A stretch of 64,000 bases of DNA from Spongospora subterranea f. sp. subterranea (lineage: Eukaryota). Of the stretch, positions 2,430 through 41,482 are shown piece after piece. The DNA is taken from contig JAUGWO010000085.1 in assembly GCA_049724395.1 (NCBI GenBank), positions 1 through 64,000 of the forward strand, written 5' to 3'. Every line of letters begins with the position of its first letter. Within the stretch, counting starts at the first letter, position 1. The translations under genes were made by a program, and so were the position numbers. The notes below the pieces were generated by a model. It did not search any database. It was not told where the DNA came from and saw only the letters and a program-made list of their open reading frames with translations.

Positions 2430-4020
2430 TTCCGCTTAATTGGCTATCCCTTATTGCTTGATACTGGTGCGGATGTTTGTGTTATGTCGGTGGACGTGGT
2501 AAAGTGTCTGACCGTCCTCGACATCCCATTCCATCGATGTGCCAGTCCGACTTCCTCGGTTTTTTTCTGTTCACCGACTGTCCCAGTGAAAGTTGAATTC
2601 TGCATTATTGTGCCATCGGTGACCTTCCTCACCATCACCGGTTCCGTGGTGTTACACTCCCTTCGGTTTCAGATTGTGTCATCTTCTCTCAAGGAGGTTC
2701 TCATCTGCAAGCCAGTGTTGGATTATATCGGGCTTAATGTCCAGGATATGTTTGAAACCTTATCTCATTCGAATCCCAAGTTCGATGTGTCCGATGTTCG
2801 TGAATTGTCACCATCTGGTCTTCATCGCGTCGGTTCCATGTCAGATTGGACAGCACAGACTACTTCTTCTGATTCCGACTCGAGGCTTTCCCTGTCGGTG
2901 ATGTTCCACCTGACCTGGTTCACTCGGCAATGCAAGAGGTGGTGTCACAGTCGGACCTATTGGCAACTCATGAAAAAGTCCAGCTATTGTCGCTATTAAC
3001 GGATTTTGTTTTCCGCATCGGCCTCAACAACGCGCCTCCAATGGATGTACCCCCATGACTGTCGAGCTCCTGCCAGGAGTGAACTCCATTCGCTGTCCAC
3101 TGTGTCGTCACTCCCCGTTGCCACGACAGTTTCTTCTCGATACGACACAAAAACTCCAAGATTGCGGCTGTCTGTTTCTTAATCCTGCATCACCTCTTGC
3201 TTCCCGTGCCTCTGCTACCCCCAAGCCCTCTCAGCCGGGACAGTTCCGCCTCACTGTAGACCTGCGACGTGTCAACGCTGTTTCGAAACCGTACCTCTGG
3301 CCATCATTAGACATTGAATCTGTTTCCACTCGGTTGTCGGAGTCGCGGGTATTTTCTTCTTTAGATGCCGACAATGGATATTGGCAAATTCCGTTACATC
3401 CTTCGGCGCAGGAGAACTTCTCTGTTATGTTGCCTCATGGTTTTTTTCCTCAACACGATCTTTACAAGGTTCCGTTGACGGCGTGGTTTGGGGCAAGCAT
3501 GCATCATGTGTTCGGCGCACTTTCCGGCGTTGAAATTAACATCGATGGCATTCTGATTCATTCATTTGATATTCAATCTCATTTTCCTCTCCTTCGTCAT
3601 GTGTTTTTGAAAGCCCGCACTCATCGAGTTCAGCTCGCAATACGCAAAGCCAAGTTGTTTCGTTCCGAAACACCATTCTATGAGAAATTATATTCCAAGA
3701 CTGGAGTTCGTCATGATCCCTCCCGCATCTCCGGCATCATTAATCTACCACCTCCTACGACGGCAGCCGACTTAATGCAATTCCTTTGTTCCATCAATTG
3801 GCTTCGTTCCAGTCTGCCACAATATAGCGACTTAGTTGCGCCGCTACAGTTCACTTGCTGCATTCTTGTTTGGCTCTCACCGTCCGTCGAACATCTCGTG
3901 AAGCCGCGAAGATTTCCCTCTCGCAATTATGGACGGACGCCCACTCTGATTGCTGGTCCACGGTCCGTTCAGCTCTGAAGCACTGGTTCAGTTATCCCAC
4001 CTCCGACCCGATTCGACGGT
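2430..4020 (+). pseudogene. Degenerate Ty3/gypsy pol (protease + RT)
   Basis: LLDTGAD (protease), FRLTVDLRRVN, SLDADNGYWQIPL, decayed NIDG in place of YxDD; frameshifts. Confidence 0.85.
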
Positions 4021-36023: not shown

Positions 36024-36884
36024 ATGGACGAGACCGTCCCCGACAATTTGACCGCATCCTTGACCGTTTTCAAGGGAGATGATACTGTCAGCAGACGGCA
36101 CCATCATGCTGCTGCAGAAACTGATAGTATTCAATGGACTCTGTCACTTGGATTTTGCGTTCTGCACGCCATCATTGTTCGCCACTTACGAACACAGCTT
36201 CCTAGGTCGAGTGTTCCTGATGAAATCAAACTGAAAATCAAACCTGCTGTCCAAGCACCCCAAAGCAGGTTCATCGACCTTTCTGAAGACAATTTCGACG
36301 TGACTGTTCGACGCGTATATGCACAATCAGTGATTCGTCAGCGATTGTCGCCCGAAAACGTCCTGATTCCACTGGTCGTTTTTATTTCCGAACAGGCGTC
36401 TGTAAGAAATTCGGGATCAACAAACCCTTCTGGTTTGCGAAGGGCGACCATAGGCAGGGTCCGTCTGGCAACAGAAGAAATCGTTGCTGCCATCCAGGCA
36501 AACCCTCCCAGTCTTCCTGATCGAGCCGTAATTGGCGAGATAGCGACGAATATTTGGTCGAGGACCAGGGCGCGAGCTGTCAATCCTGAACCAGTCGAGC
36601 AATTGCCGGCCAGCAACACATTCCGGCAGGCGATGCGATTGGACTACCTCAGAAGTTCACTTGAAAATCAGGATGCGGACGAATTCGCCGAAATCGTGTT
36701 GCGGGTCAATAGGACTGAACTTGTCACTGTGGAGGTGAATATCGCAAGCCTTCGATCCGCCCTGGGTTTGCCACCATATCCGTTGTTCGGAAACGATATA
36801 TTTCATTCCGACGAACCCGTTCCGGCAGTTGTTGGACAAGACCTTAACGACGTCGATCATGTCCTATCGGACGACGAAAATTAA
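36024..36884 (+). CDS. Uncharacterised transposon-borne protein (286 aa)
   Basis: Intronless ATG-TAA ORF inside the TIRs; stop codon overlaps the transposase stop. Confidence 0.8.
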   Translation: MDETVPDNLTASLTVFKGDDTVSRRHHHAAAETDSIQWTLSLGFCVLHAIIVRHLRTQLPRSSVPDEIKLKIKPAVQAPQSRFIDLSEDNFDVTVRRVYAQSVIRQRLSPENVLIPLVVFISEQASVRNSGSTNPSGLRRATIGRVRLATEEIVAAIQANPPSLPDRAVIGEIATNIWSRTRARAVNPEPVEQLPASNTFRQAMRLDYLRSSLENQDADEFAEIVLRVNRTELVTVEVNIASLRSALGLPPYPLFGNDIFHSDEPVPAVVGQDLNDVDHVLSDDEN

Positions 36885-37885
36885 AGATAGACCCCAAACA
36901 TTTCTTTATTTAGCTCAGTGTGACCGTACCCACAGGAATTGTAAAAATTATGACCAATATGTCTTAGATTCTTCGTACACATTGGCATAGCCACTTTTAG
37001 AACAGCCTCAGGGCAAACCCTGAACGTCAGATCAGAATGTTTCTTGAGCCACTGCTTTAAAAGTGCAAAACCTTGCTCAATAGGGTTCAACTGTGGCGAA
37101 TAAGGAGGCAGGAACATGAGTTTCGCTCCTGATCTGTGTATGACCTGTTCCAATTCCCGATACATATGGATCTGTGCATTATCTAAGATAACAATGCTCC
37201 TTGGAAGTGGCCACGGATTCAACTTCGGAGCGACGATTTCCAGGAAAGCATCATGGAACTTCTGGCGAGTGAACGTCCCTTCGGTGCATTTCCAAGAGAA
37301 ACATCCCTTTGCATCGAACGCGGCGAAAACAGAGACTCTGTTCCCTCGTTGAAACGGTTGGCGTACCAGAGCTGGCGTGTTGATCCTAGACCATCCATGA
37401 TGACGCAAACAGTCGCGACCGTCTTTGCTCGTTTCGTCCAGGAAAACTAGTTGCTCAGGATATGAATAGATTCGCGAAAGCTTTTGATATAATTCTCTGA
37501 GCTGTTCAGGAACGCTCTCGCGAGCGCGCTTTTCCAGGATTTTTCTGGACCCTTTAAGATCATGACGAAGGGCCCGGCAAATTGTCGCAGACGATATATT
37601 CGTCAGTTCGGGAAATCTGAGAGCCAGCTCCTCTTGGAGTTCTTCAATATAGAAACAGGGATTGTTTACGATGAAGGTGTGCACATAGTCGTAAACCTCG
37701 GTGGGCCATCTGGCAGACCTTTGTCGAACAGCGTCATTAACGACATTACCAGTCCTTTCAAACAGGGCAATCCAACGTTTGATGCTAGTTTTCCCAACAC
37801 CAAGAAGAACGGAGACGTTCTCTATTGATGTAGAATAAACGTAATGCAGAACAATGCATCGCCAACGTAGATCTCGACTCCACAT
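36881..37885 (-). CDS. IS630/Tc1-family DD34E transposase
   Basis: N-terminal HTHs; VFLDETS, VILDNAQIH, LPPYSPQLNPIE with 34 residues between the second D and E; ATG at 37885. Confidence 0.95.
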   Translation of the reverse strand: MWSRDLRWRCIVLHYVYSTSIENVSVLLGVGKTSIKRWIALFERTGNVVNDAVRQRSARWPTEVYDYVHTFIVNNPCFYIEELQEELALRFPELTNISSATICRALRHDLKGSRKILEKRARESVPEQLRELYQKLSRIYSYPEQLVFLDETSKDGRDCLRHHGWSRINTPALVRQPFQRGNRVSVFAAFDAKGCFSWKCTEGTFTRQKFHDAFLEIVAPKLNPWPLPRSIVILDNAQIHMYRELEQVIHRSGAKLMFLPPYSPQLNPIEQGFALLKQWLKKHSDLTFRVCPEAVLKVAMPMCTKNLRHIGHNFYNSCGYGHTELNKEMFGVYL

Positions 37886-39079
37886 CCGTAATACCAATCT
37901 GATCAACCGCCCCGCAGTATTTCTACCGGGTAGGACCAAAGGATTAGTGCAGGTTTTGGGCTAGTTGAACTAGTCCAATCAGAGGGGAAATAGTAAAACA
38001 TTGCAGGCCTGCACGTAATAGGCCGCTCTTTATTCAGAGAAGCAATGTTTTAACCAATTTTGGCAGTCAAACTGTCAAACTAAAAACCACCTCCGGTCAA
38101 ACTAAAACCTTGCTCGGAATTTGGTGACCCCCCTCGGACTTTTTTAAAACCACGCTCATTTAGCACTGGGAGCCCAAAATATATGAAACCCACAATAACA
38201 GATCGTTCTATTGTTTTTCTGCGTCCGCGGGTCGAGAACCACATACCGTATCCTCATTGCGTAACTGGTTTAGAACACATGATGATGATGGTTTACCTGA
38301 AACAGTTATGAGCATGTAAAATGGGATTGGGTGTCATATGCAGTTTTGCGTGATATGGCTCCCAGCTACGATAATCAGTGAAACGGGAAACAGATTCATG
38401 TTTGATGAGCATATTTCACTGAAATACTCTTGAGTTCACTTCGCCGATTGGTATGTCAGCACGGGGCAGCTCCTGATCCCTTTTAATTTCACGGTAAAGC
38501 AGTAACCAGGAGGGCAGATTTCCAGTAGAAATGTCAACATCTGACGCATTCGCCAACTTACTCCTCATAGTAACAGATCATGAGAAGCTGAGGAAAACTA
38601 CCGAATTCTGTAGAACGCCATGGAAAAAAATAATGATAGAACCCTTTTTTTCGACTACCAGCGTTCTTTGCGAACGGATTACATTGTTATGACATTGCAG
38701 AGATCATGTCCTTCCGGTGGACATCCTTTAAGATTATGACACACAGAGAGAGAGACGGATAACTGTGGCGGTATCGGAAAAGGCAGAGAGATATTATGAT
38801 AACACATGGCGGGGGGGGGGCTGCTCATCGCCATCTGTTAAGACTGTTGAAAGAGTGGGGACGTGATTATGATACCGCATGACGAGGCTCACCTTAATCG
38901 GTTAGTGTCCCACACAGGTTGGTTTACGATACAGCATGACGGGAGCCTGTGCTGAGCCTTGGGACCCCTTCCAGTGTTGACGTGACGATGGTCTGACTCT
39001 GTGACGATATCTAGAGCAGGTAGTCACACATTTAAGGCGAATTTCCGCAATACCAATATGAGGTAATCTAGAAATCGTC

Positions 39080-40450
39080 ATGATTGATGGAGGAGAAGGA
39101 GGAGGCAACAGTATTGGGCTAGGTCCTCAACCTCCAACTCATACCCGGCCTCAGATCGTCTCGTTGCTAGATATAGCACCTCAGGATGTACCGGCCGTTG
39201 TATCCGCCGTGACATCAATCGTATCTTTGCAGTGGCCTCAAAAAGCTACGCTCCTGCATATACTGCCTTTAGTGCACGATCCAGATGCAATGTGTCTTAT
39301 CATGCTCCTATCATCAAAGGTTATCGGGTTTGCTAAGCTAATACGTGTCCAACGATCTCATCGGAATCTGGTTGGATTCCTGGCATGCCTGATAATTGAT
39401 AAGGATCACCGTCATCAAGGTTTCGGTGCCTATTTTCTGGATGACGTCGAGCGTCGTGCTGCAGAGTCGATGTATAGCCGCATTTATTTATCAGCTGAAT
39501 TATCACCAATATTTTTCTCTGTGTCTGGGTATACACCATGCCCTTTAGTTCGTGACATTTTACATTCTCGGATAGTTACCTCAAGCATGCAACACTATCT
39601 CGCTCAAGCATCATCTAAAGTAGAATTGGGTGAGAAGCAATCCTGGGCGACCAAAGCGTTAATTGAAGAAAGGCCCATCGTTAATAGCAATTATGATTGG
39701 TGGTGGTCGCGCTTGCCATTTCATCTGAATGCATCCACAAGTTATTTGATGTTTGTCCATTATCTGCCATGGAGTTCGCAAATTGGTCCCTCATGTGGTC
39801 TATCTGCCCTACGTATGTCCTGCCTAGCATCATGTGCAAGGTTTCACGGTTCTGTCGTTGATGGAAAGTATAATGCCATGAAGGTGCAGGAAACTACAGA
39901 TTTCATTGCAAAATGCGCACCCTTCCAATCGATAAAAAGCGGAATCGAGACATTCGATATTTTCGAAGATCCGCCAAATATCAATCGGCGAATTTCGTTG
40001 CTCCAGACAGCGATTAAACTCAAATTCACCTGGATCGGAGAAATGTTCAACGCTTTGCATCTGGCATGTTTGGCGAAAAGTTACTGTGGTCTCAACGTTC
40101 AAGTGCATAAGGGAACATTCACCAAACGAGATATCCTTAACCACATAATTAACCGGAAAAACATCATCTTAGCGTACGACAGAGGACCGAACCATCAACC
40201 AATTCTGAATGGTGGAAACTCTGCACATTGGGCGATTATCACCGGAATCTTAATCAATATGGACACGAACCACATAGATGTCATCCTGCAGCATGGTTTG
40301 AGCCATTATCCATTGGTTGTTAAAGCTGATCTACTATTGGAATCAAACAAACAGTTGACCGGTCCAATATCAAGCGCGTCCTGTTACCGGATTGGATCAG
40401 AGGGCATTCAGCTTGCACAATATTTCTTGGTAATGGATGCAGTTGCCTGA
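39080..40450 (+). CDS. GNAT (NAA80-like) / ACTMAP-like cysteine protease fusion protein
   Basis: aa ~25-195: QWP, VIGFAKL, HRHQGFG acetyl-CoA motif, FF..SGY, WATK. aa ~230-450: QIGPSCGL.AL.M, GEMFNA..LA, AYD...NHQP, SAHWA, HGLS, ESNKQL. Confidence 0.85.
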   Translation: MIDGGEGGGNSIGLGPQPPTHTRPQIVSLLDIAPQDVPAVVSAVTSIVSLQWPQKATLLHILPLVHDPDAMCLIMLLSSKVIGFAKLIRVQRSHRNLVGFLACLIIDKDHRHQGFGAYFLDDVERRAAESMYSRIYLSAELSPIFFSVSGYTPCPLVRDILHSRIVTSSMQHYLAQASSKVELGEKQSWATKALIEERPIVNSNYDWWWSRLPFHLNASTSYLMFVHYLPWSSQIGPSCGLSALRMSCLASCARFHGSVVDGKYNAMKVQETTDFIAKCAPFQSIKSGIETFDIFEDPPNINRRISLLQTAIKLKFTWIGEMFNALHLACLAKSYCGLNVQVHKGTFTKRDILNHIINRKNIILAYDRGPNHQPILNGGNSAHWAIITGILINMDTNHIDVILQHGLSHYPLVVKADLLLESNKQLTGPISSASCYRIGSEGIQLAQYFLVMDAVA

Positions 40451-40619
40451 TAGCGCATCACCACATGCATTTTCGATCATGAAATTCGATAGATTTCAAA
40501 CCAAAGATATCTTCCCGTCGCACGAGAAGACGAAACTGGCAATAGGTGATGAAATTGCACCAGCAGCTTTGACTACTGCATTCATCTTGTAGAGCGGGTG
40601 TTCAATTTTTGGGAAATAT

Positions 40620-41482
40620 TTATTGGGGCAGTGCATTAGGATTAAGAACTCCAATGAAGGGAAGACATCGATATTCCCGATCGAGGTCCCTAATGTGATG
40701 CAGTCAGGATTCGTTTTCTATTCGAGATTACTACACATTGCTTACATTCCATATCCTACTACAAATTCATCTGGGCATTCCCAGCCTATATAATCAACAT
40801 TAACATCCGAGACGCGTTTCACCTGAGTTTCAATCAATATCCATAATATAAACAAGGGTGTGTTGAGGCACCTTCTTATCAAGTAGGCATGCAATCCGAA
40901 TAGATTTGGCCTTTTTATGTGCCAGATGATTCTGAAGCCACAACAAAGTGGCCCCGGTATCAATCAAATCTTCAATGATGAGAACATGTCGACCTTCTGT
41001 ATCAATAGAGATGTCTTTCTTGAGCAATACCTAGGCAGGAGATGTTACTATCGACAATGGGGATGCTTTGAAAATACTACATTGCCTGTGCTGTTGGTAC
41101 CATGGTATGAAGATAACGCCATAAAATCCAGTTCATATGCGATCGTCAAATGGCGAAGTAAATCAGAAGCAAATAATACTGCCCCATTGAGTAGACCGAT
41201 GGCAATAATTTTCTCGCCGACATAATCTAACAGATTTCAAACAAAGAACCTGTCTTATACAAAAATATTGCACAGACCTTGGCTGATCTGAATTGCCATC
41301 TGTTTGACTCGTGACTGGATTTCAGCTCCAGTCCAAAGAACCTTGTCAAGGTTTCTAGACCATTCGGGAGGACATGGTTCTATGCTTTTCCAATGATAAG
41401 TATTTCCATGGCATGCATCAGTAGATGACCTACAGCTGTAGCTTTTCCTCTGGTGATAATTCGGAAGTATCGGTACCGTCAT
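40620..41482 (-). CDS. HPRT: Hypoxanthine-guanine phosphoribosyltransferase, multi-exon
   Basis: GLLNGA..F.SDL, LDFM..SSY, VLIIEDLIDTGATL (PRPP loop), LLDK, EFVVGYGMD, YRCLPFIGVL. Confidence 0.95.

Follow-up and report, generated by a model that had tools for sequence, protein, structure and literature searches.

A protein of Spongospora subterranea joining an NAA80-type acetyltransferase to an ACTMAP-type protease: a likely single-gene system for maturation of the actin N-terminus

Introduction

Can the two steps that mature the N-terminus of animal actin be carried by a single protein in an organism that is not an animal? This question is raised by an open reading frame of Spongospora subterranea f. 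sp. subterranea, located at 39080–40450 in the first 64,000 nucleotides of contig JAUGWO010000085.1 (assembly GCA_049724395.1; this whole stretch is called the window below). In animals, actin loses its acetylated first residue to ACTMAP, and the acidic residue laid bare by this cut is acetylated by NAA80 (PMC11735805). The same review from 2025 describes actin cleavage and NAA80 acetylation as confined to animal cells. The original survey gives NAA80 for animals and, as the one exception, for Dictyostelium (PMC5924898), and its Table S2 lists plants, yeast, trypanosomes, Plasmodium, Tetrahymena and Emiliania without the enzyme.

A sequence-only reading of the window had proposed that both enzymes are fused here in a non-animal eukaryote. 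The host is indeed one, Spongospora subterranea being a plasmodiophorid of the Rhizaria that parasitises potato.

Results

The open reading frame and its domains

The plus strand from 39080 to 40450 is one uninterrupted open reading frame of 456 codons without introns, coding for 456 amino acids; at the base composition of the window, 456 random codons would stay open with p ~1e-11. The database protein CRZ05223.1 of the same species, likewise 456 aa long, differs from this product by one substitution, and the RNA contigs described below contain no frameshift inside the frame, which confirms the single open reading frame that had been proposed. Pfam matched the 456 aa protein twice, with GNAT (PF00583) at aa 53–138 (E 1.1e-7, 32.6 bits, cut-off 20.7) and with ACTMAP-like_C (PF21646) at aa 306–391 (E 3.5e-24, 85.9 bits, cut-off 27). 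The AlphaFold2 model of the full protein reached a pLDDT of 80.6 and a pTM of 0.79. The gene and its parts are as follows.

39080–40450, plus strand: NAA80-type acetyltransferase plus ACTMAP-type cysteine protease, 456 aa (open reading frame, Pfam, CRZ05223.1, AlphaFold2)
39149–39667, plus strand: NAA80-type GNAT domain, about aa 24–196 (phmmer against PDB, family profile, VIA-align)
39668–39742, plus strand: short linker, about aa 197–221, open in frame (open reading frame, model, bridging RNA contigs)
39743–40438, plus strand: ACTMAP-type protease domain of papain/C39 fold, about aa 222–453 (PF21646, BLASTP, conserved residues, fold)
39794–39796, plus strand: predicted nucleophile C239 (motif)
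40226–40228, plus strand: H383 (motif)

The motifs on which the proposal had been built were found at their places in both halves. In the acetyltransferase half these are W52-P53, VIGFAKL (81–87), HRHQGFG (110–116), FF..SGY (145–151) and WATK (189–192), and in the protease half Q234..C239, GEMF (320–323), YD..NH.P (366–374), H383, H405 and ESN.QL (421–426).

RNA across the gene

RNA contigs from four runs, representing at most three samples, were compared with the window; the contigs are unstranded. All four runs show GT–AG splicing of the neighbouring IFT57 gene and therefore contain RNA of Spongospora subterranea. That RNA should run across 39660–39760 was borne out by the contigs, unstranded as they are: in each of the four runs a contig bridges the linker with no joint within it, and one contig of one run spans 38992–40689 unbroken. 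In the contigs of the four runs no plus-strand intron was seen inside 39080–40450. One contig skips 81 bases in frame inside the open reading frame, which fits a minus-strand intron. In total, three skips near or inside the fusion gene were compatible with minus-strand introns.

39525–39579, minus strand: antisense-RNA intron, GT–AG; the 55-base skip reproduces a short database entry exactly, and one of three registers has GT..AG ends
39308–39388, minus strand: probable antisense-RNA intron, GC–AG, 81 bases; one joint in one contig of one run, GC..AG register
38844–38892, minus strand: antisense-RNA intron, GT–AG; three runs

The skip at 39308–39388, which is seen in a single contig, may alternatively be a template switch or a deletion allele.

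The database also holds short entries for the fusion gene, CRZ05224/5, that contain the acetyltransferase only. Reading the minus-strand intron 39525–39579 backwards explains these entries as antisense RNA taken in the wrong direction and not as a split product. The extra N-terminus of CRZ05224.1 is the minus-strand reading of 39046–39081, just upstream of the start codon, and represents a fold-back chimera of assembly. Between 38600 and 40700 a spliced antisense RNA on the minus strand seems to cross the fusion gene; its source may be read-through of the phosphoribosyltransferase gene, which is convergent, or it may be an RNA in its own right. At 38811 and 40714, both outside the open reading frame, one base is missing in all four RNA runs; the window may carry single-base insertions at these two positions.

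As the contigs are unstranded and antisense RNA is spliced across the frame, the contigs leave a sense mRNA unproven. Judged from sequence comparison, the stronger argument for one product is conservation, since the orthologue of Plasmodiophora is also fused.

The acetyltransferase half

In a one-way comparison with the sequences of the PDB, the single protein retrieved fly and human NAA80 first (phmmer, E 3.3e-4 and 8.1e-4), the next match having an E of 0.99. A profile built from 66 fusions (see below) gave 123 bits for fly NAA80 (E 1.2e-34), 110 bits for human NAA80 (E 8.3e-31) and 51 bits for the next GNAT, and its match extends through the W-P helix/loop region that binds the substrate in NAA80. 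The N-terminal half is thus NAA80-like, as had been suggested from its motifs. The fusion of the haptophyte Chrysotila alone also puts NAA80 first in the PDB (E 3.8e-15); with the Plasmodiophora fusion alone NAA80 is not top-ranked (E 0.092). In VIA-align the GNAT model had fly NAA80 (5wje) at rank 1 (Z 18.3, rmsd 2.4, 151 aligned residues) with other GNATs within 1 Z, so that by fold alone NAA80 ties with other GNATs. Nor did Foldseek set NAA80 apart from the remaining GNATs, and NCBIfam yielded nothing beyond generic GNAT models far below cut-off.

The acetyl-CoA motif R111-x-x-G114-x-G116 is complete, and the last GNAT strand lies at aa 188–193. Of the residues known from fly NAA80, W36 corresponds to W52, which is invariant in all 66 fusions, and K73 and S124 are retained as K86 and S138. 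Fly S88 and T125 are replaced in the Spongospora protein by C103 and A139; in the family the place of S88 is held by Ser in 41 and by Tyr in 16 of 66 fusions, and that of T125 by Thr in 57. The Tyr at aa 146 is retained in 65 of the 66, the Spongospora protein having Phe.

According to PMC5924903, fly NAA80 requires both W36, in the substrate loop, and R43 for activity; R43 binds actin at its second acidic residue, and activity was not detected without it. In the Spongospora protein no Arg was found as a counterpart of R43, the position aligning with L58, L59 or H60. By a loose count, an Arg is present five to eleven residues after the Trp in 49 of 66 fusions and absent in 17; Plasmodiophora has it at W+9. 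Among the 66 fusions, Spongospora and Plasmodiophora have the acetyltransferase halves that diverge most, with a mean identity of 22% (median 32%). By these residues and profiles the fusion family passes as NAA80-type, and the Spongospora copy fails at one defining residue, R43. Lacking an R43 equivalent and having an unusually divergent acetyltransferase half, this copy is a poor prototype of the family.

One subgroup, which contains the diatom protein, has W-P-R-G-G-S followed by an acidic residue, and Tyr, where NAA80 has R43. Its sequence would be compatible with a different actin N-terminus or a different substrate.

The protease half

The C-terminal half aligned by BLASTP with catfish ACTMAP (XP_060778978.1) at E 9e-17. 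Together with the PF21646 match (E 3.5e-24), the C39/papain fold and the conservation of Cys239 and His383, this upholds the earlier assignment as ACTMAP-like. C239 is present in 66 and H383 in 65 of 66 fusions, and Q234, C239 and H383 are invariant in all 56 rows of an alignment that includes spider and catfish ACTMAP. Across the 66 fusions the invariant residues of both halves are W52, G116, Q234, C239, G240, G320, E321 and D367. In the literature the nucleophile of ACTMAP, a cysteine protease, is given as C132 (PMC13367750), and from the motif C239 is probably the counterpart of human C132.

The model of the protease domain (pLDDT 83.3), which has a low-confidence insertion at aa 256–300, matched 3erv best (Z 15.1, rmsd 2.6, 156 aligned residues), followed by further papain-like chains; the fold is C39-like/papain-like. 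A sequence search of the PDB with the protease alignment found no solved relative. In identity to the family the protease half of Spongospora is average (rank 32 of 66).

Distribution of the fusion

Scanning 1.84 billion representative sequences in full with HMMER gave 434 matches, the best 150 of which were examined. Both domains were complete in 70 of these 150, each an independent cluster at 50% identity; the query favours fusions, and 70 of 150 is not to be read as a frequency. Nine further relatives consisted of the protease with a partial GNAT domain, 70 of the protease only and one of the GNAT domain only. Among the 70 with the protease only, the last GNAT strand was still attached in nine and a proline-rich start was present in 12. 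The 66-fusion alignment includes Spongospora and Plasmodiophora and leaves out the longest and the truncated members; PF21646 and PF00583 were both matched by all 66. A word-index homologue search found nothing with the protein and one protein with the 66-row alignment, so that the family was reached by the full HMMER scan only. Three members are longer, at 716–763 aa, and contain further sequence besides the two domains.

Names were looked up for 30 proteins, 12 of which gave an organism, and one further name came from a separate search. Fusions were thereby placed in Plasmodiophora, the diatom Mayamaea, the pelagophyte Aureoumbra, Incisomonas, the haptophyte Chrysotila and the diplonemid Flectonema, and also in the hydrozoans Hydra, Hydractinia and Clytia. 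The stand-alone ACTMAPs for which an organism was obtained come from a spider (GFS32342.1) and the catfish. Animals thus include carriers of a stand-alone ACTMAP as well as three hydrozoans with the fusion, which may or may not have split genes besides. From sequence, this is a real, conserved fusion in at least four non-animal supergroups (Rhizaria, Stramenopiles, Haptista and Discoba) and in hydrozoans. The survey of eukaryotes thus turned up a widespread fusion that is not confined to the Spongospora genome. The further suggestion of a wider distribution of the pathway stands as far as the fusion occurs in several supergroups, whereas occurrence of the pathway outside animals had already been reported or inferred for Dictyostelium (PMC5924898) and Paulinella (PMC9237673).

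The distances of the two halves correlate (Spearman 0.53; none of 999 permutations as high), as is expected for any two co-inherited genes. A protease tree was calculated from 61 chosen rows (LG+G4, no mixture model); it is unrooted and has long branches. The Plasmodiophora orthologue, with 472 aa and an overall identity of 28%, grouped with the Spongospora protein (95/93). Eighteen stand-alone ACTMAPs, including those of spider and catfish, formed a branch of their own (95/95) apart from all fusions. Joining the hydrozoan fusions with the stand-alone ACTMAPs was not rejected (p-AU 0.32). This tree settles neither its deep nodes nor the choice between ancestry and transfer into hydrozoans.

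The three hydrozoan fusions sit on large genomic contigs and group with further proteins (99/98). One of these further proteins is encoded without introns at 2442–3914 of its contig; its neighbours, a jacalin domain and an interrupted INO80E-like gene with a weak Pfam match, suggest that this contig is eukaryotic. With the alignment of the hydrozoan group, 26 pattern matches in prokaryote genomes gave no confirmed member, a weak negative. In viral contigs, where 9 and 179 pattern matches were obtained, none was confirmed, which is likewise a weak negative. Plasmids gave 16 records; among the 15 matches listed the GNAT part alone was matched.

Discussion

Proposed function

We consider it likely that one protein, combining an NAA80-type acetyltransferase and an ACTMAP-type protease, matures the actin N-terminus in two steps. 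By analogy with the animal enzymes we infer the substrate, both activities and any hand-over between them. A co-translational acetyltransferase would first acetylate new actin at Met1, or at residue 2 after removal of Met. The protease domain, with C239 as putative nucleophile, H383 as putative base and Gln234 as putative oxyanion residue, would then remove the acetylated residue and expose an acidic one, and the GNAT domain would acetylate this new end using acetyl-CoA. Through the tethering, the short-lived free N-terminus could receive its cap immediately, and the polyproline/profilin route that human NAA80 uses would not be needed.

Human NAA80 is reported to meet actin–profilin via a proline-rich loop that fly NAA80 does not have (PMC7141826). 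A run of at least four prolines occurs in only three of the 66 fusions, and the linker may therefore do the coupling instead. For the rhizarian Paulinella, actin N-acetylated at Glu3 has been noted, from which the authors infer NatH in Cercozoa (PMC9237673); as a single remark on another group's table this lends indirect outside support to the pathway in Rhizaria. In Chlamydomonas NAA80 was reported as not found, and actin keeps Ac-Ala (PMC10605206). The actin of Emiliania begins with Met-Ala and three acidic residues according to the table in which this haptophyte is listed without NAA80 (PMC5924898, Table S2); the haptophyte Chrysotila has the fusion.

Compared with NAA80/NatH (fly CG8481, PDB 5WJD/5WJE; human 6NAS/6NBE/6NBW), the fusion shares the GNAT fold, the W-P end of helix 1, the acetyl-CoA motif, the equivalents of K73 and S124 and the late final strand. 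Unlike NAA80, its acetyltransferase is joined to a protease, the Spongospora copy has no counterpart of R43, and the fusion occurs in lineages reported to be without NAA80. Where human NAA80 has its proline-rich profilin loop, the Spongospora model has a predicted helix. With ACTMAP/C19orf54 the fusion has in common Q-x-G-P-x-C-G, GEMF, YD...NH.P, AHW, SN.QL, the invariant Cys and His and the papain/C39 fold, whereas the proline-rich N-terminal arm of bilaterian ACTMAP is replaced by the acetyltransferase domain.

Alternative explanations

The main rival is that the plasmodiophorid protein is chiefly an actin protease whose acetyltransferase half has decayed or changed its specificity, the rest of the family keeping both activities. 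We regard this as unlikely. The missing R43 counterpart and the replacement of S88 by Cys and T125 by Ala would fit such a loss, as would the GNAT halves of the two plasmodiophorids being lowest in identity of all 66 while the protease half of Spongospora is average (32 of 66). On the other hand W52, K86, S138 and the entire acetyl-CoA motif are retained in a GNAT domain that is of full length and confidently modelled, Plasmodiophora has the Arg at W+9, and both plasmodiophorids have kept the domain despite an overall identity of 28%. Next in weight, and somewhat less probable, comes a different substrate. The fusions would then form a subfamily sister to the split animal enzymes and would trim and re-acetylate another protein, or acetylated N-termini more widely, and not actin. 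The separate branch of the 18 stand-alone ACTMAPs points in this direction, and so do the swap of the R43 and S88 positions in the diatom-containing group and the rarity of proline runs (three of 66). Fly NAA80 is likewise described without a proline-rich loop (PMC7141826), however; the union of hydrozoan fusions and stand-alone ACTMAPs was not rejected, and the nearest enzymes of both halves have no known substrate except actin.

More remote are two explanations that deny the assignment or the fusion itself. Bacteria contain fusions of a GNAT domain with a C39-like peptidase (DUF3335, PF11814), in the same order of folds and described in PMC10318531, and a eukaryotic offshoot of these might modify peptides, its likeness to NAA80 and ACTMAP being generic. 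Language-model features place the Spongospora protein near the bacterial GNAT plus DUF3335/C39 proteins (score 0.93; Hydra protein 0.91), the protease fold is C39-like, and PF13529 is weakly matched by two of 66 fusions. Against this, in rows scoring at least 0.92 only 135–153 of 256 features are shared, PF11814 is matched by none of the 66 fusions at E 0.001 nor by the Spongospora protein at E 1, the GNAT subfamily differs, no bacterial GNAT in the PDB comes within 59 bits of NAA80, and all named carriers of the fusion are eukaryotes. As a functional assignment the bacterial offshoot is very improbable and largely refuted; a deep common origin of the GNAT plus papain-like architecture in bacterial and eukaryotic fusions is conceivable. 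An assembly artefact, or production of the halves as separate proteins, is the least credible explanation. The short acetyltransferase-only entries and the unstranded contigs might be cited in its favour, but the entries are explained by the minus-strand intron read in the wrong direction, the linker is spanned by contigs from at most three samples, the fusion is shared by the Plasmodiophora orthologue, which groups with the Spongospora protein, and both domains recur in 70 independent clusters among the best 150 of 434 matches.

Implications

Maturation of the actin N-terminus by one protein, the reading we prefer, implies that a supposedly animal-only pathway is likely to be much older and often run by a single chain. 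A conserved single-chain form in hydrozoans and four further supergroups would mean that the pathway arose near the eukaryotic root. A plausible yet tentative scenario is that the last common ancestor of eukaryotes used one NAA80–ACTMAP protein, which Rhizaria, Stramenopiles, Haptista, Discoba and hydrozoans kept, and plants and fungi lost; on the way to the bilaterian enzymes it would have been split, polyproline–profilin binding replacing the coupling by the linker. The NatH activity that has been inferred for Cercozoa (PMC9237673) also gains a candidate gene in the fusion. As a one-gene system, the fusion would allow the coupling of the two steps to be studied, and it could be useful for the structure of the ACTMAP domain and for making actin in its fully matured form in yeast or insect cells.

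In a full-text literature search we found no description of an NAA80–ACTMAP fusion; subscription papers (e.g. Haahr 2022, Science) and supplements may mention it. Databases label members of the family by one domain or the other.

Neighbouring genes

The fusion gene is intron-free amid intron-rich neighbours. Between 40600 and 44800 lie genes for a phosphoribosyltransferase (minus strand), IFT57 (plus strand) and a chitin synthase (plus strand), with introns of about 50–60 bases. On the other side, an open reading frame for an IS630/Tc1-type DDE transposase was found at 36881–37939 on the minus strand (PF13358, E 7.8e-27), tail to tail with a 286 aa frame at 36024–36884 on the plus strand that is without a Pfam match.
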